Part shown: positions 8,845-49,497 of the stretch, in pieces
Position numbering within the stretch: position 1 is the first letter of the stretch
Layout of the letters: each line of letters begins with the position of its first letter
Source of the DNA: Squalus acanthias
Lineage: Eukaryota
Reading direction: 5' to 3'
Length of the DNA stretch: 64,000 bases
Assembly (NCBI GenBank): GCA_030390025.1
Contig: CM059432.1
Span: 56,794,001 to 56,858,000 of the forward strand
The notes under the pieces: generated by a model
Seen by the model: only the letters and a program-made list of their open reading frames with translations
Told to the model about the DNA's origin: nothing
The model's database searches: none
Position numbers and translations under genes: made by a program

Positions 8845-9118
8845 CTGTCCCCCAATTTTGATTATTCCACTATTGGTGGCCGTGCCTTCAGCTGCCTAGG
8901 CTATAAGCTCTGGAATCCCCCCCCCCCCGCCGCCCACACAAACCTCTCTGCCTCTCTTTCCTCCTTTAAGACGCTCTTTAAAACCTACCTCTTGACCAAG
9001 CTTTTGGTCATCTGTCCAAATGTCTCCTGATGTGGCTCAGTGTCAAATTTTGTTCGGTAACGCTCCTGTGAAGCGCTTTTGAACGTTTTACTATGTTAAC
9101 AGTGCTATATAAATGCAA
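8845..9118 (+). mobile_element. L2-clade LINE 3' end
   Basis: STIGGRAFSCLGYKLWN...SLSSFKTLFKTYL, then tail gtgaagcgctttt...gtgctatataaatgcaa. Same family as 55850-56327. Confidence 0.85.
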
Positions 9119-9149
9119 AACCTGGAAGGCTCTTGGTTTGATTTTTGTT

Positions 9150-9460
9150 CCTTGCTGTATGAACCAATTGCACCCGGTGCATCAGTGGAGATACTTCACT
9201 TGGCCTCGGGGCAAGGATAAGAGAATCACCTAGAGTTCTCCGTCCTGATCACTAACTAGTGACCTGTGCTGGCACTGCAAGGATGTGGACATCAGATGAG
9301 GATAAATTAGCTGTAAGTCATTCTTCCCCACCCCCCCCCCCCACCCACCCTTGTCAAATCCTCACTACCTAGACTGTCCAAATAGGACTTGGGTGCGGTC
9401 ACAGAAAGCTGCTACATCTGTGGAACCATGTGCCAGTGTGAGTTACAGCCTTCAAGGGAA
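9150..9460 (+). mobile_element. Old SINE-like repeat; related copy at about 38380-38690 (minus)
   Basis: cctgatcactaactagtgacctgtgctgg...gatgaggata resembles the reverse complement of cctgtcctcag...gcaggggtcactggataatgatg at 38495-38545. Confidence 0.4.
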
Positions 9461-10520
9461 CAACGATGAACGAGAATATTTGAAAAGAAAAAAAACTAGG
9501 ATAAAACTGCTCTTTTTTTAATAGTTAATATAATATTTTTAATATAGCATATTTTATATCCTACATTATAACATTTTTCCTCAGTTTATTTCTGAGAGAT
9601 ACAAATATATTGTGCTAGAAGTTGAAGTCTGTAATATGTTCAACTTTTTTTAAGCTTTAAGTAATCAAATTTTGAGTGTATGGATGTGGATGTTGCTGCT
9701 GCTCGGAACTTGATTGTAGAGTTAAAGATCATAGCAGATGAATTTGATTGCAAATTTTGCATGAAAGTGTACTATCTTCACATCTGAATTTGTCAATCAT
9801 GTGTTGCAAAAGTTGCATCAGTCTTGTTTTATTTACTGTTATTGCCGATATTAATAACTTGGTTTCTTGCTGAATAATAATGCAAACGTGAGTTTTTGGC
9901 CTGCATGTACAAAATGAAAAGTATGATATAATCCAGTTAAGATATATATGCCTTGCAATCATGAAATCTTTGAATGATTTGGTTTAACTTCCCACTGCTT
10001 TGGAAAGCACCTTGGGACATTTTCTACATTAAGCACATATTATAAGTGCAAGTTGTTTTGTTTATCATCAATGTTACCTGAAAGGTATATGCGCACACAT
10101 TTTAAAAGGTTGAATTCAGCAAATATCTAAGGCACAAAGGATTTTGGATAAGTATTTGAAACAGGTAAAAGGATACAGTGAAGGGGCAGGGAAATGGCAT
10201 TAGCGAAGCTGGCTCTAGTTGAAGAACTAACACCACTACAGGTGTGATGGGTCAAATGGCCTCCTTCTGTGCTGTTATTTCCTTCATTCTTCGTCCATAC
10301 TTTAATCCCTTTTAACTATTGTTTCTCCCATTCCCCCCCCCTCCACCTAGTAAAGGACCGTGGAACAAGTTTTACATTAAAGGTGTTACATAAATACAAA
10401 TTGCTGTTCTATTATGGGAATCTACAGTCAGATCTGCCTGGTTATAGTTTATAAACATATCAAAATGAAGGATAGGAAAAGTATAGCAGGTCCATTGACT
10501 CTATCCTACACTGTAATATT

Positions 10521-11257
10521 GGCCCAAAAATTCATGAGGAAGCCTTCGTGCGAGGGTAAGGCTTCCCCGCGATCTCTCACTGCGCGTTGGCTTTTCAGTT
10601 CCAGCTCGCACGAACTTGATGTTCTGGACAGCTGCTGTGCTGGGCTTGCGTATCCCACAGGCGTTGTTAATTTGTGCGAGCTGTGGGATCACGTGACTCA
10701 GTTAGAGCCAATGGCAGCACACCATCTTCCATTCATAACTTTCACATAAGTGCTGTGAAAGCTATGAATACTATAGCCCCCCAAAAGAACAGCTAAACCT
10801 CAATTAAATAAAAAAAAAAATCACATTAATAAAATAAGTATAGTTAAATAAATTAACCATTTTAAATAAAAAATTAAATTTTTGAAAACATTTAAAATCT
10901 TTTAAAAAGTTATAAAAATAAACTTACCTGTCTTTAAAGTCTCTAAAAAAGATATACCTGTTAAAAAAATTCAAAATAATACTTAATTCACTACTTACCT
11001 TGTTAAAAGTGGGTCTTACTCCTCCTTTTTTATGTGTAAAATCTTCCATACTTACCTGCGTGTTGAAACCACTAAGTGCACTGCATGCGCGCAGCCTGTA
11101 GTGGGCACGCGGTTCACCTAGGAACCGCCCCCTTTTCCATTCACCAAGTGCCGGTTTTCAGCGCATGCGCAGTGCATGCAGAAAACCGGCAATTGGAGAC
11201 AGAATACGCGAGAGTACACAGTGCGTACTCTCGCGTATCAACACAAATTTTTGGGCC
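10521..11257. mobile_element. Non-autonomous PIF/Harbinger-type MITE, family A copy 1
   Basis: TIRs GGCCCAAAAATT / AATTTTTGGGCC, 3-bp TSD ATT on both sides, GC-rich ends, AT-rich core. Reverse-oriented relative at 60939-61686. Confidence 0.85.
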
Positions 11258-11395
11258 ATTGTAACTTCTGCACACCATTACCCCCATCCGCTTCCCCCAC
11301 TTGTCCCCACCAGACATGCAATCTCCTATGAGAAAGAAAGAAAAACCTGAAGCCAATTGTAGGATGTGTGGAATTACCCCTCGCCCCATCCAACA

Positions 11396-11965
11396 GGTTA
11401 TAGAGTTCGGACTTGAGACTTATGAGAAATTACACCAGACACATGGGTTCTGCCTTTAACCTTTTATTGTTCCTAAGACAGATTCAAAACCCCAACCACT
11501 ATTCGAGCAGTACACCAATAATGTTACAAGAAATCATACATACAACCACCCGCAGATGATCAGTCCAGCGTTGATTTTAGACCACTTGCTTTCGACTGCA
11601 GCTCATCGAGTTGAGGCGATCAGCCAGGCCCCTTCTTCCAACTGCAGTGCCAATATTTTTAGTCACTGGTTTTTATACAGTTTTCCTTGCCCTTTTCAGT
11701 AAATCAATCATTCCGAGATTGTGAGATGTTCCTTTTAATGTTCGACTTAAGTTGTTTGAGCTGTCAAACTTTCGCACCCGCACATTCTGTATGGTTATCC
11801 GTTAGCTGCCTTTATGAAAGCCCAAAATTGTTCATTCACTCAAAAGCTTACAAAAGTGGCAGTGAACCACTTGGTCACATTTCACGTGTTACGTTGCATC
11901 CTGTATTTCAGAACTTCAAAGGCTTGACTCCTCCCGTTTAGCCACCAAAAGTCGTTCTACAACCT
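11396..11965 (-). mobile_element. Possible solo LTR or other unclassified insertion
   Basis: Minus strand starts TGTAGAA, with TATAAAAA at about 11677 and AATAAA at about 11467. Imperfect terminal IR aggttatagag / ttctacaacct. No TSD found. Confidence 0.35.
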
Positions 11966-12273
11966 TGTGGCCTGTTTTGTTGTAGACACGAAGGGCTAGA
12001 TTTTGCCAGTGTGGGTGGGCTGGGGCATGTCAGGTGGCATTCGTGTCAGGACCCCGACTCCGAAGTGAAGTGGAGAAAAAAGTGCGATTTTCCCCTAATT
12101 GGGCAATTGATTTCCAGCATGTGGGAACCCCTGGCCCAATCAGTCTTTTCATACAGAAAGTCGCCTCCGATGACGTCATCATTGCTGCTGGATTTAAGGC
12201 CTGCAAGCAGCCTTGCTTCTTCTGGAGACTGCAAACTTTATGGTGATTGTAGTAAGGAATTCATTGATCGACT

Positions 12274-14230
12274 ATGTCCAGCAGCACGCAAAAGTGTGCA
12301 CCACGCTCCGATGAGCCCTCCCTCCAAGCTCTGGTGGAGGGAGCAAGATCGAATAAGAAGATGCTCTTCCCTTCCTCAGGGAGGAAAAAGCCAGCCCAGC
12401 AGACTAAAGCTGTGTGGCTGCAAGTGGCCCAGGAGGTCAACTCCATATCGATGAGCCGCAGAACCTGGCTGCAATGCAGGAAGAGGTTTCATGACCTTAT
12501 CTGCACAGGAAAAGTGAGTATGACTTTCCCATCACCCTCAATCTGATCCCCATCGCCTCTCCTCACCAGCACTCTGCTTTGCTAACCTCTTCCTCCACAT
12601 CCCACTTGACACTTACATCCCTGCACCCTTACCCATTGCCTCTCTCTCTATGGTCACATTCACTTAACTATTCCACCATGTAGCCCTCACACTCCCTATC
12701 ACTGTGATGCAACAACAACAACATACAACACTCAGGGAGGGCCCTTTGTCTCCTAAGCATCTATGCTGTGTATTCTCTACACTCAATCCTTCATTCTCAC
12801 TCAAACTCCACTTGTGTCCCTCATTGCAGGAAAAGAGAGCCCACAATAAGAGGGAAAGAGCCATGACAGGAAGAGGGCCACCCTCAGTAGCCCAGCTCAC
12901 CGCCTGGGAGGAGGCGGCCCTGGAAATCGCCGGGATCGAGGAGGATTCCCAAGTGGGGGACGGACAGACGGGCGCATCACAGCAAGCTGGTGACAGAACA
13001 GTTTGGCATCTCTCTCATTGACATTGCATGAGTCACTGATAATGAATCTGATGCTCTAACAGATTGACTTATGATCATCTGCACTATTCAATGTGCATGT
13101 AACCTTGACCTCACATCTCTAACTCCTTTACTCCCCCACAGGACCATCGAAAGCCCCCGTCCCCACTGTCCAGGAGGAAGAGCCTGAGCTTGCAGACTCC
13201 TCAGAGGAAGCTGCAACCTCTGAGGGCGTAGCGTCAGCAGAATTCAGCGCACCCAGCACCAGCGCAGACACTCACACCTCGGTGGGACCTTCGCAAGATA
13301 GAGTAGTGTTGGCACCTGGTGTATCACAGCTCACAAGTGAGCATCAGCAGATGGTGGAGACAGGGACAGCAGTGGAGAGTCCTCGTCGGAGGGCGCAGGA
13401 CTCTGCCAGCTCGGCTCAGCTGCATGTCGACCCTGTGCTTCCGGGTCCATCCAGAAGGAGAGCGGTGCTGGAACTCCAGGAACAGGTGCAAGAGTCTCTG
13501 GTAGGTTTTGTCTCCAGGGTTGCTGTGAGTGTGGAGTGAATGGAGGAGTCCATCGCGAACATGAGCAGAGCCTTTGAGGAGGCATTGACGCGTGAACACA
13601 TTACCGCGGAAAGGATGGCAACCTCCATGGAAAGGATGGCTAACTCAGTGGTAAGGCTGGCTACCATAGAGGAGAGGATGGCTACGGCCATGGAGGAGCT
13701 TAGTCGCCAGGGTCTTGAAAACATGTTCATTGTTCAGAATAGAATGACATCTCTTGAGGAGCGATGGTCAGCTATTGAGCATACAAACCAGACCTTCATG
13801 GAAGTCCTCTGGAATAGGACTTCCAGTGCAGAAACGCGTCTTCATGGCCCCCCTGAAGTGCAGCAAGGTGCTGTCAAGCCACTTGCTAGCTCTGAAAGTG
13901 GGGCTGACCCATGAGAGGGATGTTGGTGGCAGACAACAAGGAAGTGGGGGCTCCTCTCCAAGCGCTCACATGACCATGCCACTGCATAGCCCTTGGTCAG
14001 AGCCCCACCAGAGTCCTCACCCAACTGAGATGGGCGTCTCAGCCCCTGCACAGCCGCAGGAGCAGCAGACTGTTGCCGAGCCCTCACAGGTTTGCAACCC
14101 CAGAGGACGCCCACCAAAGGCGTCGAGACAGGAGCAGCAAGAAAGTGAGCAAGAGGCCTCCACATCTGCTGTAGCCACAGGGGAAGCACCATGTAGGAGC
14201 ACGCTTAAGAGGAAGATAAAGCACAAGTAG
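12274..14230 (+). pseudogene. Harbinger Myb/SANT-like DNA-binding protein gene, 3 exons (12274-12513, 12830-12989, 13142-14230), one in-frame stop and one frameshift
   Basis: Exon 1 has the trihelix/Myb pattern (AVWLQVAQEVNS...RRTWLQCRKRFHDL). Both introns are GT-AG with consistent phases (0 and 1). Coiled coil MEESIANMSRAFEE..., AT-hook-like PRGRPPK, basic C-terminus KRKIKHK. TGA at 13537-13539; frame change near 13860-13915. Confidence 0.85.
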
Positions 14231-14702: not shown

Positions 14703-15508
14703 GCTTCTGCTATATACCTCAGTTGAGGAAGCTCAGTCAAGGTGGGGAGAGGGGTTTCCAAGGAGGTCACACTGGAGATGGGTCTCAGGCTCCAAACTTC
14801 CACAACAATGAGTAGGCCTGCTAAAAGTTCCCCCAGACCTGAGAAAACAAAGTTCTGCCACCTGCAAATGATGATTGCTGAAAACTCCTTTTTAATGGTG
14901 GAGCTGCAGCTGTTACTAAGCAATCCACTTGTGAGGCCGCCAGGATTACCTGGCGTGTTCTAGAGGAGGCGTGTAGGATGGGGGAAATGTCTAAAAATCA
15001 GAAAGGCCTCTCAAAATTGGATTATAGAGGCAATTAACTGGTTGTTAAGGGTCTATCCCATCTCTTGGAGGCGGGATGGAAATGGGGTCTGAAACCCCGA
15101 TTCTGGGAAAATTGCTCGGAGGCGGGATCGGGCCCGCACTCCATTTTTAGCGATTTTAACACTTCACACGCCTCCAATTCCGCCTCCTCGGGCCTGGCAA
15201 AATCGAGCCCGAAGGGAGTTTGTTTATCTCTCTTGTCTATGACTACCCCCTGCAGTCACAACCATTTGTTCTGCCATTTCTACTATCTGACACCCAGCTC
15301 TTGAAATATCTCCATCACAAAGTAGCTTTCAAATACAACATTTCCTTTTGAAAGCACATCTGCTCCCAAATGTTTGCTGCCTTTTAGTAAAGTACATTAA
15401 GCACATTCCATGTCCACTTATCAGTGAAAGACAGTCTTATTTCTTTATTTTACTTCGAAAAAACTTTTTGGCCTGGCAAAGCATTTAAATAGATGCCAAA
15501 ATTAAGGG

Positions 15509-17215
15509 AAATAACAACAGAAAACGCTGGAAAAACTCAGCAGGCCAGGCAGCATCCGTGGAGAGAGAAACAGAGTTAACGTTTCAGGTCGAAGACCTTT
15601 CGTCAGAACTGGAAAAAAGCAGGAAATGAAATAGATTTAAAGCACGTATAAAGCTTTAAGTAAAAAGGGGGAGGGGATGAAAGAACAAAGGGGAAGGTCA
15701 GTGGTGGGATAGAAAGCAGGAGAGATTAAGAGACATTGAGAGACATTAAGAGATAATCAAGGCAAGAGGAGGTGTTAATGTGACAGGTTGAGGCTAGATG
15801 AAGTGTGAGAGGCGCTGGCAGAATGAAGGACAGCTGCCAGCTTCTGGGAGGGAAAAAAAAGGCCAAACAAAAGGGTGGATGAAAAAATTTTAAAAAATTA
15901 AAAATATAAATGTGATCGGGGCCGAGCATATGATCTGAAATTGTTGAACTCGATGTTGAGTCCAGAGGGCTGTAGGGTGCCTAAACGAAAGATGAGGTGC
16001 TGTTCCTCGAGCTTACGCTGAACTTCCGTGGAACAATGCAAGAGGCCGAGGACGGTGAGGTCAGAGTGGGAGTGGAGCGCAGAATTAAAGTGACAGGCCA
16101 CCGGGAGCTCAGGGTCCCCCTTACAGACTGAACGGAGGTGTTCCGCAAAGCGGTCACCCAATCTGCGTTTGGTCTCCCCAATGTAGAGGAGACCACATCG
16201 TGAGCAGCGAATACAGTATACTAAATTGCAGGAAGTACAAGTAAATCGCTGTTTCACCTGGAAGGGGTGTTTGGGGCCCTGGACAGTGGGAAGAGGGGAG
16301 GTATAAGGGCATGTGTTGCATCTCCTGCGCTTGCACAGGAAGGTGCTGGGCGAAGGGGAAGGGGTGGTAGAGGAGTGGACTAGGGTGTCGCGGAGGGAGC
16401 GGTCCCTGCGGAATGCTGAAAGAGGAGGTGAGGGGAAGATGCGTTTGGTGGTGGGATCACGCTGGAGGTGGCGGAAATGGCGGAGGATGATCTGTTGAAT
16501 GTGGAGGCTGGTGGGGTGAAAGGTGAGGACAAGGGGAACTCTATCGTGGTTCCGGGAGGGAGGGGCAGGGGTGAGGGCAGAAGTGCGGGAGATAGAATGG
16601 ACACGGTCGAGGGCCATGTCAACCACAGTAGAGGGGAATCCTCGGTTGAGGAAAAAGGAAGACATGTCGGAAGCACTGGTATGGAAGGTGGCATCGTCAG
16701 AGCAGATGCGGCGGAGACGGAGAAACTGGGAGATTGGAATAGAGTCCTTACAGGTGGGAGGAAGTGTAGTCCAGGTAGATGTGGGAGTCAGTGGGCTTGT
16801 AGTGAATGTTAGTCAATAACCTATCCCCAGAGATGGAGATGGAGAAGTCGAGGAAGGGAAGGGAAGAGTCGGAGATGGACCATGTGAAGGTGAGGGAAGG
16901 GTGAAAATTGGAAGCATAGTGAATGAAATGTTCTAGTTCAGGGCGAGAGCAGGAGACGGCACCGATACAGTCATCAGTGTACAGGAAAAAGAGGTGAGGG
17001 AGGGGACCCGAGTAGGACTGGAACAAAGAGTGTTCCACATATCCCACGAAAAGGCAGGCATAGCTAGGACCCATGTGGGTACCCATAGCAACACCTCTCT
17101 CTCTCTCCACGGATGTGTTTCTCTCTCCATGGATGCTGCCTGGCCGGCTGAGTTTTTCCAGCGTTTTCTGTTGTTATTTCGGATTTCCAACATCCGCAGT
17201 ATTTTGCTATCGTTA
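15509..17215 (-). mobile_element. Penelope-like element (Neptune-like), 5'-truncated, with inverted terminal arm and tail
   Basis: RT GVAMGTHMGPSYACLFVGYVE..YTDD, Cys-rich linker CKRRRCNTC, GIY-YIG NLVYCIRCSRCGLLYIGETKR..EH. 15509-15572 is inverted at 17116-17180, followed by a tail of about 35 nt. TSD AAAATTAAGGG at 15498-15508 and 17216-17226. Confidence 0.95.
15574..15610 (-). ncRNA. Minimal type I hammerhead ribozyme in PLE pseudo-LTR
   Basis: Minus strand AGUU-CUGACGA-A-AGGUC-UUC-GACCU-GAAAC-GUU-AACU: conserved core, stem II, stem I AGUU/AACU, loopless palindromic stem III (AACGUU). Confidence 0.8.
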
Positions 17216-18187
17216 AAAATTAAGGGTCTGTGTTTACTTACAGAATTAAGGATAAATCGCTGGGAATAACACAATCTGCTCTGTGACACTGCCAGTAAGT
17301 TCCTTTACCATATTATACAAAGATAAATGCGGTTTTGATTACCATTTCTTTTACTGTGTTGTCATTGCCAAGCCAGTTTTATCTACTGCCTATTGGTTAT
17401 ACTACATGTAACTTCGGTTTAGCTTTGATGTTGCATCAGCAGTTCATTTGGAATGAAATGATGCATCTCAAAGAATGGAGCTAACCACTTTTTGTATGGG
17501 CTTTATAGGCCTTTTGCTGGTGTGTTTCAGTTTTGTAACGTCACACAGCTGAATCCTGATAAAAGACAGAATCGGTTTGCCAACAAATGTTCTGCTTTGA
17601 TCAGGGTATTACAAACATGAAAAGCTTATTTGCAATTCTTTACACTGCAGCCCATTTAATCATTCATTCAGCAATTCAGTCTAAACCCCAACATAAAACA
17701 TGAAACAGACACATAACATTTTACACAGAAGTAAGTAGATGTCTGAAATGTGTTGCTACTTCTTGGTGAAATTTGGCAGTGAATTGATTATGTTTAGTGT
17801 GTTGACAATCAATTACCAGATAATTTTGTTTCAAAGTGTTCCTTATTTTTGTTTTTCACCTTTATAGATTTCTGGCTGATTTCATTAGCTTATTTACAGC
17901 CAGCTTTGCAGAGTCCTGAACCAAATTGCCTCAAAATGAAGAACTGGCCATTGCAGTGACGAGTGGCCTGAAAGGATTTAGCTACCTTAACATTATGCGG
18001 AAGGTCTTGTAAATCACTTAATAACAAGGCAATGCATCAAATTTTGCAGCACACTCTCTCTGGGTCACTACATTGATCTGATATTGATGTGGTGCTGGAC
18101 AGAACTGAAAACCGAAGCAGAAAGTGATAGGTTTGACTGTTTGGTACTGGATGATGTACGTCAATCAAATTGCCTTCCAGGTGAATG

Positions 18188-24609: not shown

Positions 24610-26362
24610 GGGGTTGAAACCCAGTTTATTGACCATAGCACCAATCCAGTGAGGCAGTAGGCAGCAAATTCAGAATTGGAACAGTGGTCCCCATGCTAAC
24701 TTCCTTTGACGGTGTGCCGCCTTCTTCTCCTTCACTCTCCTCCATTACTTAGGGGACAGGCTGTGCAGGTGGCAAATCTTGGTCACCTGAAAGCAGAAAG
24801 GCACAAGAGTCGGGTTATGGTGAGGGGAGGGGGGGAAAGCAAGTTAATGATACATACAGCATCACCAGTTTGTAAGTGAGAAGAGATTGTGGAATAAGTG
24901 GGAAGTGTGATGTGAGAAGCAGGATTAGGAATGAGCATACCGTTATTGTCCCCAAGGGCTTCAACTTCGCCCGTTGCCATGGCCTCGGTGACTTCTTCTC
25001 CGATGATGTCAAGCACCGTCTCCTCCAGTTGGCTCAAGGTCTCTAAGGCAACTTAACCACCTCCCGTCTGCCGCTGCTCGCGGCGATTCTGAACCACCTT
25101 TGTCAGCAAGAGAAAGGGATGTGTGTCAGTGAATGTGGTGCAATGTGTTTGGGTTATGTGTCTACTGTGGTTGAATAGCTGGCAGCGTATGGAAGGTGTG
25201 ATATGTGGGTGAGTTTTGCAGCAGTGGTAAGGTTGTGAGGGTGAAGTAAAGCTATGATTGTGAGGTCTGAGTGGTGAAAGGTAGAGATTGTTGGAAGGTG
25301 AGTGATGGGGGTGTGGTGCATTGGGCAGTGTGTGAGGCTTGTGGAGCAGATGGTGGGGTATGGCATTTGTTGAAGCCTTCACTTACCTTGACCTGTTGTG
25401 TGTGGTCATTAAACTTCTTTTGGCACTGGATCCATGTTCTCAGTACAGGAAACTTTCGTTTATCCGGCATCGACGGGACCGGCGTGGTGCCGGTTTATCG
25501 AAAGTACCGGATAACAGAGAGTTATATCTACCGAGGCTATTTTTAACAAAGAGACTCCAAGCAGCACAGGAGAATCTACTCCTGCTACTGCAATGTTTCG
25601 GACTTGCGACAGCGCCAGGAGGCCGAGTAGTGGCACTTTTGAAAAGTGCCCCTACTGACTAAATCGGCGTTCTCGGACTCGGACTCGGGATCGGCAACAT
25701 TGCCGGTTATTTGAGAGGATTTTTCGGAGCACTCGGCGTTCGCGGAGACTCGACTGCGACTCGGCAACATTGCCGGTTATTTGAGAGGAGTTTTCGGAGG
25801 ATGATTTTTGCCGGTTAAGCGAGAATTCCGGATATTTGGGTGCCGGATAAACGAAAGTTTCCTGTACCACACTGTTGGCCATCACGTATCCAACTATCTC
25901 TTGCCACAGCCGATTCGATGTATGCGCTGATGGCTACCTGCCACCCTGCGGGAACAGGACAAGCCTGCCTCCTCTCCATGGCCTGTATCAATGCCTCCAG
26001 AGCCACATCGAAGAACTTTCTGGCTCATTCTCTTTGCTGGTGCTCAGCCTTGTGTTCAACAACAACTGCAATTCCAGTTCCAACTCCAATGACAATGAGG
26101 CGCTGCTGCATCAAAGTACCGCCCCTTTAAGTAGTGGAGAAAGACAAGGCCAAGCATTGCTGGCCATTAGACTGCCATTGGCTCACCTGTTGAGCGGTAA
26201 GCCAATCAGCAGCATGTTTAGCACTGAGATCAGCATTACAATCATGTAAATGAGCAGGCAGTATGAATTTTGCATGCTGCTTGGACCATTTTGAACTAAC
26301 GCAGCTAAATAGCGCTGGGCCATGACACCGCCCGTTTTCGGGCCATATCCAATTTCTAGGTC
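24610..26362 (-). mobile_element. Decayed Harbinger remnant with Myb/SANT pseudogene
   Basis: ARKFFDVALEALIQAMERR...RLWQEIVGYVMANSVV|LRTWIQCQKKFND..VK/gtaagt (donor at 25386). Exon 2 KVVQNRREQRQTGGG..LSQLEETVLDIIG../gtatg (24940). Acceptor at 24787. Harbinger-like end caatttctaggtc at 26362; left boundary uncertain. Confidence 0.8.
25446..25864. mobile_element. Tc1/mariner-pogo (Tigger-like) MITE, copy 1
   Basis: Perfect 24-bp TIR CAGGAAACTTTCGTTTATCCGGCA, TA TSD. Removing it restores the host Myb reading frame (NSVV-LRTW). Confidence 0.92.
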
Positions 26363-28867: not shown

Positions 28868-29743
28868 TGGTAAGTGTGATTATGGGTCGTCTGGGACCTG
28901 TAGCATGTTTTCCAATGCAACAGCCTAAAACCAAAGAGGCTTGCCTATTACTGTAATACATCAAATTTAATGAAGAAATATATCACACGACTGACATAAT
29001 TGAAAAATATTACACATGCTACTGATAATTAAAGATACAGCCTCATGGGGCTACTATTCACCTTTTTAATATAATTAATATAATATAAAATATAATATGG
29101 TGGATTTGATGTGTTTGCTTATGACGTAAACTGTATAACAATTTTTAAAAAGTGAAAATATTTTACCTATTTTAATGTTATTTGTAGTTTTTCTGCCTGA
29201 TTATCATGTGACACAGGTATTAAAGTATATGCTGGGAATTGTAGTTCCAGAGGAGCAGGGGGAAAAGCACAGCTCCCATAATGTATCTTTCTCGCAGGCA
29301 ATATTTGTCCATAATAACTAGAAATTCCAAGTACCCGAGGTTCAAGTGAAATTTCCAACCAAAGCTTCAAGCCCCAAACAAAAGGAGAGGCCAAAGCGGG
29401 AGAAATGTTTTGTGACTTTCTAATATTAAATGACAAATTTTAGTGGTTTTTCTTTAGAACTGTGCAACTTTTTATGCATTTCAACTGTTTGATTTTTTTT
29501 TGGAAAATAACATTTTGGGATACAGTATATGAGTAGTTAGAGACATGACATGGTAAATGTAGCAGGCTTGGGCAGAACAGGTGACTTTGGACCTATGGTT
29601 CGGTGTAGACTTATTTAAAGAGATTGATTGCTATGATTAGTCAACAACTCCATTATCATTGTATCATGCAGCTACCATGATGGTAGAAGGCAAACTAGAT
29701 GAACTGTGGTCTATTATCGTCTAACAATTCCTATGTTCCTATT

Positions 29744-29915
29744 GTGAGAAGTCGCACAACACCAGGTTATAGTCCAACAGCTTTATTTGAAATCACAAGC
29801 TTTCGGAGCACTGCTCCTTCGTCAGGATTTCAAATAAAGCTGTTGGACTATAACCTGGTGTTGTGCGACTTCTCACATTTGTCCACCCCAGTCCAACACC
29901 GGCATCTCCACATCA
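29744..29915. mobile_element. 172-bp non-autonomous PLE-type hairpin element with a hammerhead core in the loop
   Basis: Perfect 52-bp inverted arms 29743-29794 and 29826-29877, 31-nt spacer, 38-nt one-sided tail. Flanking direct repeat TATGTTCCTATT at 29732-29743 and 29916-29927. Confidence 0.85.
29795..29825 (-). ncRNA. Minimal hammerhead ribozyme core
   Basis: Minus strand CUGACGA-A-GGAGC-AGU-GCUCC-GAAAG-CUU-GU: intact core, 5-bp stem II closed by G-C, palindromic stem III AAGCUU. Confidence 0.8.
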
Positions 29916-29984
29916 TATGTTCCTATTAGCTGTATACACTGGCTAAATTAATAAATAAGGAAAATAGTGCCCAAAAACAATATA

Positions 29985-30406
29985 CAGGAAACTTTCGTTT
30001 ATCCGGCATAGACGGGACCGGCGTGGTGCCGTATCGAAAGTACCGGATAACGGAGAGTTATATCTACCGAGGCTATTTTTAACAAAGAGACTCCAGGCAG
30101 CGCGGGAGAATCAAATCCTGCTACGGCAGTGTTTCGGACTTCCGACAGCGCCAGGTGGCCGAGTAGTGGCACTTTTGAAAAGTACCCCTACTGACTAAAT
30201 CGGCGTTCGCGGACTTGGTCTCGGTCTCGGGATCGGCAACATTGCCGGTTATTTGAGAGGAGTTTTCGGAGCACTCGGCGTTCGCGGAGACTCGACTGCG
30301 ACTCGGCAACATTGCCGGTTATTTGAGAGGAGTTTTCGAAGGATGATTTTTGCCGGTTAAGCGAGAATTCCGGATATTTGGGTGCCGGATAAACGAAAGT
30401 TTCCTG
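29985..30406. mobile_element. Tc1/mariner-pogo (Tigger-like) MITE, copy 2
   Basis: Same 24-bp TIR and TA TSD. Highly similar to 25446-25864 and in the same orientation. Confidence 0.92.
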
Positions 30407-33400
30407 TAATAAAATTATTTGAATAACTTGAATCATTTTGTGGTGGTTTCTGGTTCCACGTTGCTGAATTTGAAAAATTGCAAATCATTTGATTGGGTTG
30501 TTTTGCGGTGCTTGTAGGTTGCTGATGGAAACTTTCAAATCTGTCCTGTGAATAGAACTTGTTTTTGTTTGGCTGAGTTAACTAAATGTGAAGCAATCAG
30601 TATGATTTAATTTAACAGTAGTTATTTGCACATTTTATTTTGCCCAGACATGTGATGACTTGAACGTGTCACATTCTGAACCTTTTGAGAGGTGTGGCGC
30701 TTTCTCTCTCCCTCTCTCTCTATCTCACTCTCATTTCCCCCTCACACTATTCTCATTATAGTGGCCTGGGATAGATATGGACAGAAACAGTGACAGTGGG
30801 GAGGACTGGGAATGAGTCAGTGGTGTATTAGGAAGGAATTGTTTGTGTAGGCTGGGGTCTGGCAGCACTTTGGGGGGTGGTGGGGGTAGGGTTTGCTGCT
30901 CTGCTTGTGAGTACTGTTTATCGGGTGGGGGGGCAAAAGCACAAAGTTTCTGTAAGTGCACTGTAGGATTGGGGTGGGGGGGCGGTGGTGTGAGGAGCAC
31001 AAGGGTAGAAATAATCAAAGATGGGGAAACGTCTCCATGGGTTGGAGGAGAAGCCCAAGAGCAGGTGGATGTCTGTGGAAAAACTTTCAATCGTGTGCAC
31101 ACACAGACTGGGGTTTACTGAGCTCTCAAGTAGCCCATGCATGGAGGCATGGGAACATTACAACCCAATGTCCAGTTGATTGATCAAAGCTATTGAAATG
31201 GAGCAGAAAACAAGATTGGGGTCCCTGAGAGGAAATTCCTGTATGGTGGAAAGCTGTTGGTGAGATTGAAGAATGAAATGGCTACATTTATCAGTAAGTT
31301 TTATACTTATTTTTTAAGATTGCATGGGGACCAACATGGCCATTCAAATAACTTTGAATTTTTTTTTTCAGGGACATAGTTTATTCTGAGATAAATGTTT
31401 GAGTAGTGCAATAGGTTCCTTTTTCTGAATAGGTTTTGTTGAGAGATGGTGCAGTGCACTTCATGTGTGAGTGAGTATTATCTGACCAGTTGCTTTTCAG
31501 TATGTGGAATTTGAGCCAATCAGAACGCTTTGTGTTTTATAGCGACGTCGGACACATTCCCTTGCCTTATGGACAGTTTGTCCTATGGACACTTGCCAGA
31601 TGCAACACGTTTAATCATATAGATATGTGTTAATTGTTTATTGCACCATCATTATACTGCAACTGGTAATTAGTTGTTTTGGGGTTTGTTAAAGCTTTGT
31701 TTAACATTAAGTGCTAGCTAACAGTGGGTGTTTAAAATGAAGTGCTACCCAAGTGACAAATTGGATGTTATTGCCAGTGACCTTCCATTTGGAATGCCTT
31801 GTTAAACGATGCTCTTCCAAGTTTTTCCACACATTATCTGGCTGTCCTAAATGGCTGGAAGGAAGAGATTTTCTTGTAGCTGCTTTGCATTGTAAATCTG
31901 TGAGATTTAAGATTGCTTACAGTGGTCTGAAGCGATTATTCCTCCGTTCTCTAAGTCTTTTTTAATGTTTTCTTCGGTTATTCAATTGAATTTATTGTGT
32001 TCTTTTCCATTTGCATTTTTGCTAACTGTTTTACTATATTAACAGAAACTGTCAACCTTAAACAGTAATTAATATAAAAACATTTTTTTTGTTAATTGTT
32101 CTTTTGATTTGGATGACATTGGCAAGACAGTATTTATTGCCCATCCCCAGTTGCTCTGAGGGCATTAATAGCCAACCACGTAGTGTGGTACTGGAGTCAC
32201 GTATAGGCCAGACTGGCAGGTTTGCTTTCTGAAGGACATTAGTGAACTAGTTGCCTTAATGAAGAAGTGTTTGATCACCTTTTTAGCATTTGTTTAGAAT
32301 CTCAATCATCTGATATAAATAATGCTGCAATATGTCATTGTGCAACTTAAATATGATATTTTACTCTCCTTCAAAGAAAAGCAGGTTTGTCAAATGTATA
32401 TTCATGAAGAGGATACTCCTTTTTAAAAATAAGTAAAATTCAATTTTGTGTACAAATCTAATTAGCTGACGGGAGACAATTTTTTTCTTGTAATTTTATC
32501 TAAGACATGGAAATATATATTGTCAAGTAATGCTTGAAACAATTAAAATACAAAGAAACGTTTTTGTTTTATGTGTGGCGATAAGGGTAAGAAATGTTGG
32601 CGCTGAGAAATGGAAAATAATTTTGCACCCAGTGTCAGTACTGAATACTGTTAGGTCAGATCAATCACAGAGTAAGCCCCAATAATACATTTTAGTTTCA
32701 ACCTCAGAAGAGCTGTCTGTGACATCTCTGTTTACACCACTCATTCTTGTAGTCTGTGACTGATTTAGTCATTTAGTACTAATTATTGTCCTAGTCATAC
32801 CCATTAGGAATTTTGCAGATCGAAAATTGATAAACTCATTTCACTTGTATAAGATTATTTTCAGCAGTTTTTGATGGATTCAGATCAAGATCCCAGAGGT
32901 GAAAGATGAACAATTATCCAATGTCTTGCAAACAAGCAGCTTAAATAGAGTTCTTAAAAAATCAAAGATCACATTCTGTGGAGCAATACCAGAATGCTTT
33001 CTCCTGTAATTTAGTCTTGCAATTGTGCATCACTCTGAAAAATACAAACCTAGGCCTCGTCATCGCAGCCATGAATATGCTTGATTTATTTTACTGTTAC
33101 GCCTAAAATATTAATTCTTTTAGATGTAAAAAATGGTGAATGATCATCTATAAAATGTATTCTTCCTTTGTTGATGCTAACAAAAGGTAGATGAACAGAT
33201 GAATGATCTTGGTTAATTTGATACATGAATAAATCAAGACTTCTTTATGACATAGATTATTGCAAAGTAGAATTGCAGCAATGTATATATATTAAGTCAG
33301 TAGAGCCACACAGACTTTCACATGCAACATTTTTTGAAAATGTCACTGGTTAATGGGAATAAATCTTGTAAGAACAGTGGTAAAGATTTGTATATATTTA

Positions 33401-38690: not shown

Positions 38691-39653
38691 CGCTGGAGGA
38701 GCACTTCTCAGTAAGCACCACCAGCACAATTGGAGAAATAATAAAAGATGAATGTTATGTAAAAAAAAATTGGCATTGAACAGTTAAAATGCCCTTTACT
38801 TAAAAACATTTAAAAGGGACGAGGTTGATGCTTTGCAACCCAAGCACCCCATGATTTTTGATTGCAACTTCTGATTTTTTTTAATAACTCACAGGCATAG
38901 AAATTCAATTGCACAGTGCCTCTTTTCCAGGCAAACAACAGGCTATGCAGGGCCCAATACAGCGTGCAGCACGAGTGCGCTCAGTCCACACTAGAAGTGT
39001 GTCACACACCGTATTGGTTATTGTAGTTGTCCAAGGCGCCCGCCTGAAACTAGCGTTAGTCCCTTCAGCAAATCGGGGCGTAACGTCTGTTTCAGGCCCC
39101 TTTGTGAAATTGGTTGGCGACTGAGTTTTCTCAGGTGCACAGCAGAAAAAGCAGTGGTCGTTAAAAAGACTGCTGGAGGCCGTCATCCAAAAGGATGAAC
39201 GTTAAATGTTAAAAAGTTCAATGTTTTTTACTTGCCTAAATGTGGAGCCAGGAGGATCAGGAAGCTCCACATTAAAACTGCAGGCCGCAGTACTCCCAAA
39301 ATCTTCCAAAAGTAGTAAGCCATGCAGCTATACAATTGTAACTATTTAAAGACATTACAATTCAAGAATCATCCCTACCTAACAAACAAAGGCTAAAAGG
39401 TAATATTACTACAATATAAAGACAAATCATTAGCAGTATTATATTTGCACACTTCATCAGATCACATCAAATCAGTTAGCAACACTCTTCTGCCAGCCTG
39501 ATTAACCCTTTCCTTACACCTTGAGTTCCATCATAATGGGCCGGAGTTCGTGGTCAGTGGTGAATGAATGGCGCTTGCACTTACACTTGCCCATAGACTT
39601 TTTATGGGCTTTTGCAATGGGAGTTCCAGTCAGGCAACTATTGAAAAAGCACA

Positions 39654-42348
39654 AAATAACAACAGAAAACGCTGAAAAAACTCAGCAGGCCAGGCAGCGT
39701 GGAGAGAGAAACAGGGTCAACGCTTCAGGTCGAAGACCTTTCATCAGATCTGGAAAAAAGCAGGAAATGGAATAGATTTTAAAGCAAGTTTAGGGGCTGG
39801 GAAAAGGGGGAGGGGATGAAAGAACAAAAGGGAAGGTCAGTGACAGGATAGAAAGCAGGAGAGATTAAGAGACATTGAGAGACATTAAGAGATATTCAAG
39901 GCAAGAGGAGGTGGTAATGGGACATGTTAAGGAACAAAGGATGGCTCGAGATGAAGTGTGAATTGCGCTGGCAGAATGAAGGACAGCTGCCATGTGGGAG
40001 GGAAGAAAAAAAGGCCAAACAAAAAGTGTGGATAAAAATATATATATATAGGATAGGGGCCGAGGTTATGATCTGAAATTGTTGAACTCTGTGTTGAGTC
40101 CAGAGGGCTGTAGGGTGTCTAATCGAAAGATGAGGTGCTGTTCCTCGAGCTTACGCTGAGCTTCCATGGAACAATGCAAGAGGCCGAAGACGGTGAGGTC
40201 TGAGTGGGAATGGAGCGGTGAATTAAAGTGACAGGCCACCGGGAGCTCGCGGTCCCCCTTACGGACTGAACGGAGGTGTTCCGCAAAGCGGTCACCCAAT
40301 CTGCCCAATGAAGAGGAGACCACATTGTGAGCAGCGAATACAGTATACTAAATTGCAAGAAGTACAAGTAAATCGCTGTTTCACCTGGAAGGGGTGTTTG
40401 GGGCCCTGGAAAGGGGGGGAGGTATAAGGGCATGTGTTGCATCACCTGCGCTTGCACAGGAAGGTGCCGGGCGAAGGGGAAGGGGTGCTGGGGGTGGTAG
40501 AGGAGTGGACTAGGGTGTCGCGGAGGGAGCGGTCCCTACGGAATCCTGAAAGGGGAGGTGAGGGGAAGATGGTGGGATCACGCTGGAGGTGGCGGAAATG
40601 GCGGAGGATGATCCGTTGAATGTGGGGTGAAAGGTGAGGACAAGGGGAACTCAATCGTCATTCCGGGAGGGAGGGGCAGAAGTGCGGGAAATAGAACGGA
40701 CACGGTCGAGGGCCGTGTCAACCACAGTAGAGGGGAATCCTCGGTTGAGGAAAAAGGAAGACGTGTCGGAAGCACTGGTATGGAAGGTGGCATCGTCAGA
40801 GCAGATGCGGCGGAGATGGAGAAACTTGGAGAATGGAATAGAGTCCTTACAGGAGGTGGGGTGGGAGGAAGTGTAGTCCAGGTAGCTGTGGGAGTCAGTG
40901 GGCTTGTAGTGAATGTTTGTCAATAACCTATCCCCAGAGATGGAGACGGAGAAGTCGAGGAAGGGAAGGGAAGAGTCGGAGATGGACCATGTGAAGGTGA
41001 GGGAAGGGTGGAAATTGGAAGCAAAGTGAAAGAGATTTTCTAGTTCAGGGAAAGAGCAGGAGACGGCACCGATACAGTCATCAATGTACCGGAAAAAGAG
41101 GTGAGGGAGGGGACCCGAGTCGGACTGGAACAAAGAGTGTTCCACATATCCCACGAAAAGGCAGGCATAGCTAGGACCCATGCGGGTACCCATAGCAACA
41201 CCTTGATTTGGAGGAAATGAGTGGAGTCAAAGGAGAAGTTGTTCAATGTGAGAACAAGTTCAGCCAGGCGGAGAATGGTGGTAGTGGATGGGGACTGGTT
41301 GGGCCTCTGTTCAAGGAAGAAGCGGAGCGCCCTCAGGCCATCCTGGTGGGGGATGGAGGTGTAGAGGGATTGTACGTCCATAGTGAAAAGTAGGCGGTTG
41401 GGGCCAGGAAACTGTTAAAGTGGCGGACGGCGTCGGAAGAGTCACGAATGTAGGTGGGAAGAGACTGGACAAGGGGAGAAAAAATAGAGTCGAGATAGGA
41501 AGAGATAAGTTCCGTGGGGAAAGAACAGGCTGAAACGATGGGTCTACCAGGGCAGTCCTGTTTGTGGATCTTGGGAAGGAGGTAGAAGCGGGCTGTGCGG
41601 GGTTCGGTGACTATGAAGTTGGCGGCCGTGGGAGGGAAGATCTCCAGAGGAGATGAGGTCAGTGACAGTCTTGGAAACGGTGGCTTGATGTTCGGTAGTG
41701 GGGTCATGGTCCAGGTGGAGGTAGGAGGAGGTGTCGGAGAGTTGGCGTTCAGCTTCCGCTAGGTAGAGGTCGGTTTGCCAAACAACAACAGCACCACCCT
41801 TGTCAGCCGGTTTAATGACAATGTCGGGGTTGGATCTGAGAGAATGGAGTGCTGCAAGTTCAGAGGGAGGTAGGTTGGAGTGAGTGAGGGGAACAGAGAA
41901 ATGGAGACAGCCGATGTCACGGGCCGTGGATTTTTTTATCCACACTTTTTGTTTGGCCTTTTTTTCTTCCCTCCCACATGGCAGCTGTCCTTCATTCTGC
42001 CAGCGCAATTCACACTTCATCTAGAGCCATCCTTTGTTCCTTAACCTGTCCCATTACCACCTCCTCTTGCCTTGAATATCTCTTAATGTCTCTCAATGTC
42101 TCTTAATCTCTCCTGCTTTCTATCCTATCACTGACCTTCCCTTTTGTTCTTTCATCCCCTCCCCCTTTTCCCAGCCCCTAAACTTGCTTTAAAATCTATT
42201 CCATTTCCTGCTTTTTTCCAGTTCTAACGAAAGGTCTTCAACCTGAAACGTTAACTCTCTTTCTCTCTCCACGGATGCTGCCTGGCCTGCTGAGTTTTTC
42301 CAGCATTTTCTGTTGTTATTTCGGATTTCCAGCATCCGCAGTATTTTG
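39654..42348 (-). mobile_element. Penelope-like element with inverted pseudo-LTR arms of about 385 bp and a tail
   Basis: IVIKPADKGGAVVVW, RFYLLPKIHK..GRPIVS, MDVQSLYTSIPH, FFRYIDDC, GIY-YIG remnant. 39654-40039 is inverted at about 41933-42321. TSD CTATTGAAAAAGCACA at 39638-39653 and 42349-42364. Confidence 0.95.
42220..42256 (+). ncRNA. Degenerate hammerhead motif (core CUAACGA); partner at 39714-39751 (minus) is also mutated (GAAG)
   Basis: agttctaacgaaaggtcttcaacctgaaacgttaact compared with the intact copy at 15574-15610. Confidence 0.65.
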
Positions 42349-45300
42349 CTATTGAAAAAGCACAGTTCCCTCTACAAAGCATCTGGGACCTATGTGAACA
42401 GGGCAAGCAACTGTGTATCTCCTTAACCAATCAGATTGAAGAATGATTAATAAGCAGCGCAGAGTCTGAACCAGGAAGTGTAAGTTAGAATATTGAATTC
42501 AATGTTAAATCATGTACAGAAAACAAAATAAAGTGAAGGAAAGAAAGATTGGATTAAGAGAGAGCGAGAGATAAAAGGGACAGAAAGAAAAAGTCAATAA
42601 AAATGTTTTTAAAATTTTTTAAAATCTCCAACAATAATTAAAATCTGAAGGAATGAGACGCCACATTTGTTAAAGTTAATTTTCAGCGCCCGAGAGGTTG
42701 TTTGGCAGTCATTAAGACTTATCACACCATTAAAAATTTACTTACATTAGAATGAACAACCCCATCTTTTTCTAGCTAGTAAGTACAGGAACTTCACGCC
42801 ATTTCATATGTTTTAGTGCCGAGTGAGATACCATTCTCGCGCAGCTTTTGGAGGAGCAGAGCATCTCGGATAGCAGCTTCCTGATTTATGCATTTAACTG
42901 CGCATGTGTGGTCGCTGGAAGTTGCTGTCCGAGTTATATGTTAATAACGGTGATCGCCGTGGCAGGCTCAATGTTCAAACAGAATGGAGTAATAGAGAAA
43001 GTTTCTGTATCGAGATCAAAATGCGAGTTGGAGGAGAAAAGTAAACCTAAAAAGTCAGCTTTCTCTTTCCAAGACGGAGGAGGGTTAGAAAGGAAGGTTA
43101 ATTAAAGTTACAAGAGACAGCTTTGGCAAGGCAACAGATGGAACAACTCTACTGAAAGAGCAGGAAGACAGCAGTTAACCCAGTTTTGTTGCAGTGAGGT
43201 TCCTCATTTGTATCTTGTTCAAGGTGTCTTTGCTATTGTTTTTACCTGTGTACAAAAATATTGTTGCAGCCTTCAAATAATTTATTTTTTCTGTTTAATG
43301 AAGCACTGTTTCTTTGCTTTGCAATCAGCAAAATCTTGAAGGACTATCAGGCTGTGTAATGTAACAGTTTTGATGCAGTGTTGAGTTTCACCTCCGTTGC
43401 CCCCGCAATGTGCCTTAAGGCAACCATGTGATGTGTCAATGTTAAATTTTCAATTCTCAAACTATCTATTTTGAGAGACAGTCAGTTATCTTGCCCAATT
43501 AATGCCAATTCTGAGCATATTTTTTGGTCTTGCACCTGTTACATAAGAACATAAGAAATAGGAGCAGGAGTAGGGCATTCGGCATCTCGAGCCTGCCCAA
43601 CCATTCAATAAGATCATGCCTAATCTGATCTTGGCCTCAACTCCACTTTCCCGCCCGCTCCCCATAACCCTTGACTCCCCTGTAGCTCAAAAATATCTCT
43701 ATCTCCACCTTGAATATATTCAATGACTCCGCCTCCACAGCTCTCTGGGGTAGAGAATTACAAAGATTCACAACCCTCTGAGAAGAAATTCCTTCTCATC
43801 TCCATTTTAAATAGGCGACCCCTTTTCCTGAAACTATGCTCCCTAGTTCTAGATTCCTGCACGAGGGGAAACATCCTACCTGCATCTACCCTGTCAAGCC
43901 CCCTCAGAATCATATATGTTTCAATAAGATCACCTCCTATTCTCCTAAACTCCAATGAGTATAAGCCCAACCTTTCTTCATAAGACAACCCCTTCATCTC
44001 AGGAATTAACCTAGTGACCTTCTCTGAACTTCCTCCAATGCAGGTTTTTCCTTCCTTAAATAAGGAGACAAAAACTGCACGCAGTACTCCAGGTGTGGCC
44101 TCACCAACGCCCTGTACAGCTGTAGCAAGACTTCCCTACTTTTATACTCCATCCCCCTTGCAATAAAGGCCAACATTCCATTTGCCTTCCTAATTACTTG
44201 CTGTACCTGCATGCTAACTTTTTGTGTTTCATGTACGAGGACCCCCAGATCCCTCTGTACCACAGCATCATGTAGTCTCTCTCCATTTAAATAATAATTT
44301 GCTTTTTTATTTTTCCTACCAAAGTGGATAACCTCACATTTTCCCACATGATACTCCATCTGCCAAATTTTTGCGTACTCACTTAACCTATCTATATCCC
44401 TTTGCAGACACTTTGTGTCCTCCTCACAACTTACTTTCCCACCTATCTTTGTATCATCAGCAAATTTGGCTACAGTACACACAGTTCCTTCATCCAAGTC
44501 ATTAATATAGATTGTAAATAGTTGAGGCCCCAGCACTGATCCCTGTGGCACCCCACTAGTTACAGTTTGCCAACTAGAAAATGATCCATTTATCCCAACT
44601 CTCTGTTTTTGTTAGTAGCCGATCCTCTATAGATGCTAATATATTACCCCCAACCCCGTGAGCTCTTATCTTGTGCAGTAACCTTTTATGTGGTACCTTA
44701 TCGAATGCCTTCTGGAAATCCAAATACACTACATCTACTGGTTCCCCTTTATCCACCCTGCTCGTTACATCCTCCAAGAACTCTAGTAAATTTGTCAAAC
44801 ACGATTTCTCTTTCATAAAACCATGTTGACTCTGCTTTGATTGTATTATGATTTTCTAAATGTCCTGCTATTACTTCCTTAATAATGGATTTCAGCATTT
44901 TCCCAATGACAGATGTTAGGATAACTGGCCTATAGTTTCCTGCTTTCTGCCTCCCTCCATTCTTGAATAGGGGCATTACATTTGCGGTTTTCTAATCCGC
45001 TTGGACCTCTCCAGAATCCAGGGAATTTTGGTAGATTAAAACCAACGCATCCACTATCTCTGCAGCCACTTCTTTTAAGACCCTGGGATGCAGGCCATCA
45101 GGTCCAAGGGACTTGTCAACCTTTAGTCCCATTAGTTTGCCTAGTACTTTTTCTCTAATGAGAGTCATTGTTTTAAGTTCCTTCCTCCCTATAGACCCTT
45201 GATTATTATTGGGATGCTTTTAGTGTCTTCTACCGTGAAGACCAATACAAAATATTTGTGCAAAGTCTCTGTCATTTCCCTGTTTCCCATTATTAATTCC

Positions 45301-47204: not shown

Positions 47205-47533
47205 AATACTCACAGAATCTCCCGCCCGCTCTGTATACTCGCAGAATCTCCCGCTCTTTATACTCGCAGAATCTCCCACTCTGTATACTCGCAGAATCTC
47301 CCGCTCTGTATACTCGCTGAATCTCCCGCTCTGTATACTCGCTGAATCTCCCGCTCTGTATACTCGCTGAATCTCCCGCTCTGTATACTCGCAGAATCTC
47401 CCACTCTGTATACTCGCTGAATCTCCCGCTCTGTATACTCGCAGAATCTCCCACTCTGTATACTCGCAGAATCTCCCGCTCTGTATACTCGCAGAATCTC
47501 CCGCTCTGTATACTCGCAGAATCTCCCGCTCTG
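47205..47533. repeat. 25-bp minisatellite, about 13 copies, at the CR1 5' end
   Basis: Unit AATCTCCCGCTCTGTATACTCGC(A/T)G. It produces the 25-aa periodic spurious ORFs. Confidence 0.95.
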
Positions 47534-49497
47534 TTGAGAGATGGACTGAACCCTCTCCAAAAATATTACACTTGATAATCCTCAGCAGACATTATGGAAA
47601 TGAGACCAACCCTTCTGTCTGGACTGAATTTGAACCTCGGTCCCAGATTATATTGTTTTAACTCACTGTTACCACCCATTTGCTCAAAACAGCGTTGGAT
47701 CTACTGCACTTCTGATCTCAGAGAAAAAAATCCTTTTTTTCCACTAAGGAGCACTTATTGTTTGAATAATGCAGCACACTTCTACCAAAAATTTGGTCAT
47801 TAAATGATCAATGTTTTTGTGGTTCCAGAAACCGGTTTGGAAAAACAATATTTTAAAACTGTCATTTTATCCATTGAAATCATTTTGTCACTATTTTAAC
47901 ATCTGCAATCAGATGCAGTAGGCTGCATTATTATATAAATAAGTTGTTTTGCTGCATCTTAATCTTATTGTAGACTCAATCAGAATCCAACTGTCTGCTT
48001 CAATCAAATATTAAAAACTTGAACTATGTCTTTGTTACCTTTTTTAAAAAAAAAAGTAAAGTTGCTGTTTTGACCGTATATGGATGCTAGGATTAATGGC
48101 TATGCTAAGTCGTTAGTTCTGGCAAGTGATTTGCTATTTTTCAGATCTTTTCAGAAATCAACAAAATTGTGTACTTTGATGCAGCAAATTGTGCTACATG
48201 TGAAAAGTGTAGACTTTTTTGCAATTTGTCACAGGTATTGTGCCTTACCAAATCAGTAACTCTCCTAGTTGGAGCAGGACTGTGGACCTTTAAAACCAGC
48301 CGTTGCTGGCATAATATTTTCTTTTATGTTGCTGGTTAGTTCTATGAAAACAACAAGAATAACAATGATGCAGAATGCAATGAGAATTAAAAAAAATTCT
48401 GTACCCAAGTACAAAAATTGACAATGTTGATGCTCACTAATGCAATTTAGTTTTAGTTACCCTTTTTAGCAGATATTCTCAGATTTTCGTTATTTTGGTA
48501 GATTCTATAAATGTGTTGTAATTTTAGCTGCAGTGTTGACTATTCCAAGCTACTATTTGGATTTCTCTTTGCCTCTCTCCTCTCTCAGGAGCTGCTCACT
48601 GTAATGCAGCTTCCTTCAATTGAGTGCATTTTGGCACAACAAACACACCTCCCAACAGCTTGCTTAAATTATTGACAAGCAAAGTGAAAAGCTTTTCTCC
48701 CCTTCCTTACCCTGCCTTAGTGTGGCACTCCATAGCACCTTGAATAAGATTTGATAGAGTGCAGTCCCACCAGCAGCAAACATCAAAGAGTGACCAGCAG
48801 TTCTGGGCTTGTAACATGCAATCACAAGATGGGACTGTAGCTGTTCTGTTGTTCATACAACTGGCTGCCAGACTTTTATTTAGTAAGGCTTGAAAGGAAT
48901 CACAACTCATTTCTCTTTATTAGTCTGCGACACTTATATGCCTAATAGTTTTAAATATCTTTTGAATTAATAATTGACCTGATAATTTGGATCCTGAAAT
49001 TGATTTTTCTGTCTATTATTTATGATCACATCAAATCTGAAGTACATTTACACTACAACTGCTTTGCACCATTGCTAAGAAATTGTAATATGAAGCTAGA
49101 ATCAGACTCAACCTCCAGGGACTCTCACTCCACTTTGTCCTGTAGTTGGGTCTGGTTGTGACTCCAATTTTGCACTGGTCCAGTTTTTGCACATTTGAAC
49201 GTCACGAATGTTGGGACCCCTTGCCTCGGCGGCAATGGCTGAAAGGCAAGTCTCGGGAAGGGGGTTTGAGTGGACAATGGAAGGGGTGGTGAGTAGCACC
49301 GACTGTGGAGTCAGGGCAGTGCATATGCTTCTCCTGGCTCCATGGGAAGGTTTTTGGAAAAAAAATCTTTTTTTTAAACTTACTTTTAGTTGGTGACTGC
49401 TGAAGAAGCCTGAGCGGTTAGGCCTGTGCCCAGCTTGGCCATCGCTGTCCAATTTCTATGAGGGGACCTAAAACCGGCATTAGGCCCCTTATTTACA

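Follow-up and report, generated by a model that had tools for sequence, protein, structure and literature searches.

A 172-bp hairpin with a hammerhead motif in its loop, probably two head-to-head truncated ends of an abundant PLE

Within the 64,000 nucleotides of Squalus acanthias DNA analysed here (the window) lies a 172-bp hairpin unit that very probably consists of two head-to-head, 5'-truncated ends of a very abundant Penelope-like element (PLE), likely placed by one recent insertion, and that carries in its loop a hammerhead motif predicted to be inactive. The length of 172 bp is the span between the two copies of a flanking 12-mer. In positions of the window, the unit is made up as follows:

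29732..29743, plus strand: left copy of the target-site duplication, 12 nt, its final T common to the arm
29743..29826, minus strand: inverted, tail-less, 5'-truncated copy of the PLE end, comprising C2.1 of stem I, the core and the 52-nt arm
29795..29796, minus strand: the two bases at +1 and +2 past the predicted cut, paired in the native stem I and unpaired here beside the arm helix
29797..29825, minus strand: minimal hammerhead core, recognised from the readout of the loop, the motif pattern and the layout given in PMC4209133
29826..29877, plus strand: arm of the tailed, 5'-truncated sense copy, its first base at +3 counted from the predicted cut
29878..29915, plus strand: one-sided PLE tail, 38 nt
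29916..29927, plus strand: right copy of the target-site duplication, its first T ambiguous

Much of this anatomy had been recognised from the letters alone in the original prediction, and it holds. The arms (29743-29794 and 29826-29877) are 52 nt each, with 100% complementarity and 31 nt of loop between them; the 38-nt tail adjoins the right arm only; and the unit is without coding sequence, in that the ORF listing of the window contains no ORF of at least 120 aa across it. The minus-strand fold has a z-score of -14.9, and none of 200 shuffles is equally stable. The flanking direct repeat, put at 12 bp, is present, and the 12-mer occurs at only two sites in the window (29732-29743 and 29916-29927), but T29743 and T29916 can be assigned to element or repeat alike, so the length of the duplication is better given as 10-12 bp. 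Its left copy lies at the 3' end of a multi-copy repeat, labelled CR1 in the original prediction. The tailed arm and the inverted copy overlap by a single nucleotide, G29826. No tandem repeat is listed across the unit, the hammerhead count is one, and a tRNA scan of 29000-30600 found no tRNA-like head. An AATAAA at 29833-29838, 10 nt past the predicted hammerhead cut, is a candidate polyadenylation signal.

On the minus strand the loop reads as first given. The core runs from C3 (29825) to A9 (29819) and is followed by an extra A (29818); stem II has 5 bp (29817-29813 with 29809-29805) and the closing pair G10.1-C11.1; G12 to A15.1 occupy 29804-29801, the palindrome AGCU occupies 29801-29798, and H17 is U 29797, which places the predicted cut between 29797 and 29796. 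In PMC4209133 the minimal hammerhead is characterised by an extra base after position 9, G10.1-C11.1, a palindromic 15.2-16.2 and a helix I of 4-5 bp. The conserved core and the first three of these features are all present in the hairpin loop, and the identification as a minimal hammerhead with palindromic stem III is borne out. The further statement that the loop is exactly a hammerhead core is right as to the core, which is intact, but leaves out two extra nucleotides (29796 and 29795) that separate H17 from the arm helix. The combined pattern of core, stem II and palindrome has three matches in the window vs none in 100 shuffled windows. The Rfam hammerhead models, put forward with the original prediction as a means of confirmation, do not recover the motif: no Rfam family reaches its gathering score anywhere in the window, and none of the seven matches at E<=10 within 29500-30100 is a hammerhead. 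Five of the seven are microRNA models far under their cut-offs, and we rejected a microRNA precursor, as the best of them, MIR5062 (47 bits vs 140 for gathering), is accounted for by the long hairpin. A 22-letter stem II pattern had one match among metagenome contigs (L001) and none among viral contigs; L001 was rejected as a relative, being without the CUGA core and without the arm, and is a chance match.

The element to which the arms belong was traced in public contigs, those of 4 of the 24 listed runs aligning to 29650-29982 at 85% likeness. Two of the runs, X2 and X5, are samples of organism A, X2 being possibly the source of the assembly; X8 is from organism C, and X9 is from organism A and, by guess, RNA. 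What follows draws on the best 15 of 78 joints, on 24 loose-end rows out of 672 and on 32 pieces out of 32,305; X5 was 55% read, with 29938-29982 uncovered. In X2, 13,585 contigs aligned to 29650-29982, with a summed depth, which is not a copy number, of 0.5-3.5 million on the unit vs 10.1 on the unique right flank, and about 3,500-14,000 on the left flank vs 10 on the right. The PLE family of the hairpin unit is plainly very abundant. Family contigs are present in X9 as well, with zero cover on the unique right flank. Among accessible papers, a search that left Repbase and most subscription papers outside, we found no report on this family.

The places at which family contigs depart from the window outline the element in its other copies. 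Loose ends lie behind 29916-29917 in all four runs (136 contigs in X2, 112 in X5, 71+29 in X8, 21+6 in X9); others lie behind 29880 (69 contigs in X2, 41 in X5), with counterparts at the mirror sites, 29740/29745 (30/22 in X2, 23/24 in X5). The sequence beyond all of these, taken from 24 of 672 rows, is unrelated (agreement 0.37-0.54). The family has, in other words, two kinds of 3' end about 36 nt apart, which is the signature of the tail. Behind 29826 there is one common native continuation in 4 of 4 runs (62, 52, 54 and 13 contigs), with an upstream consensus of up to 30 letters, from which the native partner of 29795-29796 was taken. This continuation restores a native 4-bp stem I, UCAC/GUGA, of which the hairpin copy keeps C2.1 alone, and the native short stem I has indeed been lost, as originally proposed. 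The origin from a PLE likewise stands, on the anatomy of inverted copy plus tail, the two 3' ends of the family and the hammerhead in the terminal repeat.

The window also contains three insertions of a second PLE family:

15508 to about 17215: insertion A, inverted copy plus tail, duplication of 11 nt (span 15508-17226)
39654 to about 42352: insertion B, inverted copy plus tail, duplication of 16 nt (span 39638-42364)
about 49495 to 50217: insertion C, duplication of 13 nt (span 49485-50230)

The inverted form is found in two of the three (A and B) and duplications of 11-16 nt in all three. The hammerheads of this family have the layout seen in the hairpin loop, with intact minimal hammerheads at 15606 and 49630 on the minus strand and point changes in both cores of B. 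Of six ORFs scanned, one in insertion A gives a GIY-YIG match, which is weak (E 0.0008) and falls under the cut-off. The hairpin had been said to have no similarity to the other three PLEs. That is true of sequence, since blastn found no match between the hairpin unit and the other PLEs in the window, but not of build: the hammerhead layout is common to both families, and two of the three insertions share the anatomy and the duplication. The hairpin unit is the second family's insertion anatomy shrunk to 172 bp. Insertion A has a 21-nt partial duplicate of the arm directly before the tailed arm (17095-17115), as if synthesis had restarted. Other repeats in the window include a MITE-like pair of roughly 425 bp, 94% identical (29983-30408 and 25444-25866), in which the terminal inverted repeats measure 26 bp and a 70-bp stretch is duplicated internally; one copy stands 55 bp to the right of the hairpin, and the organism C cover ends at about 29973. 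Tandem arrays occupy 47225-47534 (25 nt x 12.4, 95% matches) and 504-731 (76 nt x 2.9).

The arrangement of the hairpin unit has described counterparts. According to PMC8557442, PLE insertions are 5'-truncated and often come with an adjoining inverted copy, truncated likewise at its 5' end, and with a tail of 30-40 bp at one end. Like the canonical complex insertions of EN+ PLEs set out in PMC8557442 and PMC8969392, the hairpin unit has head-to-head 5'-truncated ends, a one-sided tail (38 nt), a hammerhead in the terminal repeat and an AT-rich target; unlike them it is only 172 bp long and without an ORF, and its ends nearly touch, forming one hairpin. A biochemical parallel is offered by PAc, of the Poseidon clade from Anolis carolinensis, which according to PMC11167929 acts on both strands of AT-rich DNA, cutting and extending them from two RT start sites with the tail lying between these. 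The family of the hairpin unit similarly has two 3' ends one tail apart and a hammerhead shortly upstream of them, and by analogy priming on both strands as in PAc would yield the structure of the hairpin, with the difference that PAc is known by protein biochemistry and the hairpin unit by DNA sequence only.

We propose, following the PAc model, that the element's protein would have placed nicks in the two strands of an AT-rich site, staggered by 10-12 nt. From one of the ends thus freed, reverse transcription would start at the internal site and give rise to the tail-less copy of 84 nt, which runs through the hammerhead; from the other it would start at the tail end and give rise to the tailed copy of 90 nt. 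Both cDNAs would halt early and be joined across their one common base, G29826, and gap filling would create the target-site duplication. Because both cDNAs copy the same 52 nt, the template would presumably have been a tandem transcript or a pair of RNA copies. The hammerhead would come to lie in the loop because every family copy carries it 54 nt upstream of the internal start, and one cDNA is some 30 nt longer than the other. Lacking an ORF and a second hammerhead, the product is most likely a dead end.

The tail can also pair with the arm, in that 29890-29898 is complementary to 29841-29849 over 9 nt, a length that 9 of 2000 shuffles reach. Such pairing occurs in the second family over 9 nt within 42262-42352 and over 7 nt within 49495-49596 (2 of 2000 and 53 of 2000 shuffles, respectively), and over 5 nt only in the mutated copy A; it sets the tail-less end within a loop. 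The resulting stem-loop may, by analogy, correspond to the stem-loop at which PAc starts reverse transcription. Whole-fold z-scores of these regions are weak, from -1.0 to -2.0, and +0.65 for A.

Several observations bear on the age of the insertion. The arms and the duplication show no differences over 64 sites (95% bound 4.6%), and X2 record 8 contains the filled right junction, 29893-29982, with no differences. For organism C, X8 record 19, which is 1,890 nt long at depth 8.7, shows 1 difference over 29650-29731, compared with 9-13 in the other 14 flank pieces listed (among 32 of 32,305 pieces); it ends one base short of the 12-mer and extends beyond that end for 1,806 letters, and the X8 depth over 29926-29973 is 10-17. 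The end of this contig piece at 29731, together with the cover on the right flank, makes it likely that in organism C the site is empty and holds one 12-mer, from which we infer, in agreement with the original prediction, that the flanking repeat is probably a true target-site duplication. At 29866/29874 the hairpin copy has C/C, the majority state of organism A (T makes up 3.5% and 0.2% of the X2 depth), and in organism C T accounts for 98% of the depth at 29866 and 87% at 29874; these near-fixed different alleles suggest that bursts of the family were separate, after the split of organisms A and C. The recent date first proposed is supported by the unchanged arms and duplication and by the organism A alleles, and the sequence record as a whole fits a recent, lineage-specific insertion.

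Other copies of the family also fold back on themselves, and their junctions indicate whether the hairpin moves as a unit. The joints counted are junctions other than the hairpin's own, which matches the reference and so yields none; perfect hairpins, moreover, break contigs into short pieces, and missing junction-crossing pieces were given no weight. Each joint shown (the best-supported 15 of 78) links a point in the left arm or the loop with one in the right arm or the tail, as in head-to-head copies. Among these best 15 of 78 all 15 differ from one another, support is 1-2 contigs per run, 7 of the 15 are common to X2 and X5 and none is found in X8 or X9, and their positions are compatible with a uniform distribution (KS p-values of 0.69 and 0.13). 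These 15 junctions are scattered, which is the pattern that the original prediction had associated with a one-off truncation rather than a family. Several of the same 15 joints stand at an X2 depth of 50-74, 5-7x that of the unique flank, and modest recurrence of some fold-back junctions is possible.

One alternative to early halting of both cDNAs is that hammerhead cleavage came first and its 3' product served as template for the tailed arm, with run-off at +1 and two bases lost in joining. There is a weak lead towards such an origin: the tailed arm of the hairpin begins at +3 past the predicted cut and that of insertion A, in the second family, at +6, the native stem I supplies 4 nt of complementarity precisely at the place of the junction, and 4 of the 15 listed joints (best 15 of 78) have tailed arms that start at +6 to +10 vs 1.7 expected (p=0.083). 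However, none of these 15 starts at +3 to +5 and the remainder are spread up to +58, in a test that is one-sided, the reference being unable to show tailed arms longer than +3. The tailed copies of B and C in the other family read through their hammerheads, that of C through an intact core, and the in-register junction, with two more bases behind 29826, is absent from the variant list at a 1% threshold. PAc with a dead hammerhead inserts equally well; according to PMC11167929 its hammerhead cleaves only with protein, insertion in vitro can do without it, and no RNA reads were found to end at the cut. Taken together we regard a cleavage footprint as unlikely. Among accessible papers, most subscription papers being excluded, we found no study of hammerhead-cut breakpoints in genomic PLE copies and, apart from the negative RNA-read check in PMC11167929, no test of a cDNA end set by the cut; PMC8557442 calls the function of the hammerhead in EN+ PLEs unclear. 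If the footprint were real, tens of thousands of fold-back junctions would record germline cutting by PLE hammerheads and would provide in vivo evidence of a cleavage step that the cited PLE papers leave unshown.

The long arms had been expected to substitute for stem I, but they are 2 nt out of register: in folding computations C2.1 pairs with the G at +3, in the register of the arms, with a probability of 0.997, vs 0.0003 for its catalytic partner at +1. Forcing the active register costs 4.4 kcal/mol relative to the arms' own, and the active register with an open core has an ensemble share of 4.5e-5. The hairpin copy has one stem I pair in register (C2.1) vs the 4 bp native to the family. 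Stem III, too, is still missing from the monomer, in which A15.1 and U16.1 are two bases apart regardless of arm length; it is stem III that is the real limit on cleavage. In the double-hammerhead geometry, with which the legend to Fig. 1 of PMC4209133 is consistent, each active core unites the 5' half of one molecule with the 3' half of another, and because each core thus spans two molecules the 52-bp arms must swap partners in an active dimer. The active dimer, at -191.9 kcal/mol, is uphill by 11.5 kcal/mol from two hairpin monomers (-203.4), and the best dimer is at -215.0; these nearest-neighbour energies leave out the tertiary contacts of the hammerhead core. With the arms 2 nt out of register and the active dimer uphill, self-cleavage of the hairpin's hammerhead is unlikely, and the motif is predicted to be inactive. 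According to PMC4209133, minimal hammerheads need a dimer because stem III is missing, and for S. mansoni the single motif showed no cleavage and dimers cleaved at a low level. The loop resembles the min-HHR of metazoan PLEs described there in its full core, its extra base at 9/10.1, its lack of helix III and, for the family, a helix I of 4 bp, and departs from it in the single in-register helix I pair of the hairpin copy and a helix II of 5 bp vs 7-8 bp in S. mansoni.

These results speak against the original proposal of a non-autonomous, retrozyme-like hairpin family, mobile as a 172-bp unit and with the arms as stem I of a self-cleaving RNA, which we consider very improbable. Its core is intact and its arms are perfect, C2.1-G1.1 could pair if two bases bulged, and some other junctions lie at 5-7 times single-copy depth; against this stand the absence of any shared junction among the best 15 of 78 listed, the register and stem III of the monomer, the arm swap required of the dimer and the inactive single motif of S. 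mansoni. The hammerhead strand is, in addition, opposite to the tailed copy, and a transcript with the sense tail therefore holds an antisense hammerhead. In animal non-LTR retrozymes each unit of a tandem array has its own hammerhead (PMC7229834 and bioRxiv 10.64898/2026.07.22.740005). The hairpin is like them in being short, non-coding, PLE-related and hammerhead-bearing, but they are arranged head-to-tail in tandem and expressed as linear and circular RNA, whereas the hairpin unit is single and head-to-head, with one damaged minimal hammerhead and neither a tandem unit nor a tRNA-like head.

Least probable of all is that an ordinary truncated copy acquired its second arm after insertion, through template-switch or local fold-back repair. 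Such repair would leave the arms matching at each family-variable site, as indeed they do, but the inverted copy has 30 nt (the hammerhead) missing from the tailed copy and the tailed copy has 38 nt missing from the inverted one, so that neither can be a plain duplicate of the other, each holding sequence that the other lacks, and the left end falls 2-3 nt from the family's preferred tail-less ends while a single duplication encloses the entire unit. We also rejected a MITE or fold-back DNA transposon, as the right arm is 38 nt (the tail) away from the duplication and the arm sequence runs on into native element sequence in other copies.

As an ordinary insertion of two truncated PLE ends the single, well-preserved copy matters little, being a compact example of an insertion pattern already described. 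Host read-through on either strand, if it occurs, would give a 52-bp RNA hairpin. Of wider interest is the abundant young family to which it belongs, the fold-back breakpoints of which bear on both-end priming at two RT start sites and on a possible role of the hammerhead cut in fixing cDNA ends in vivo.
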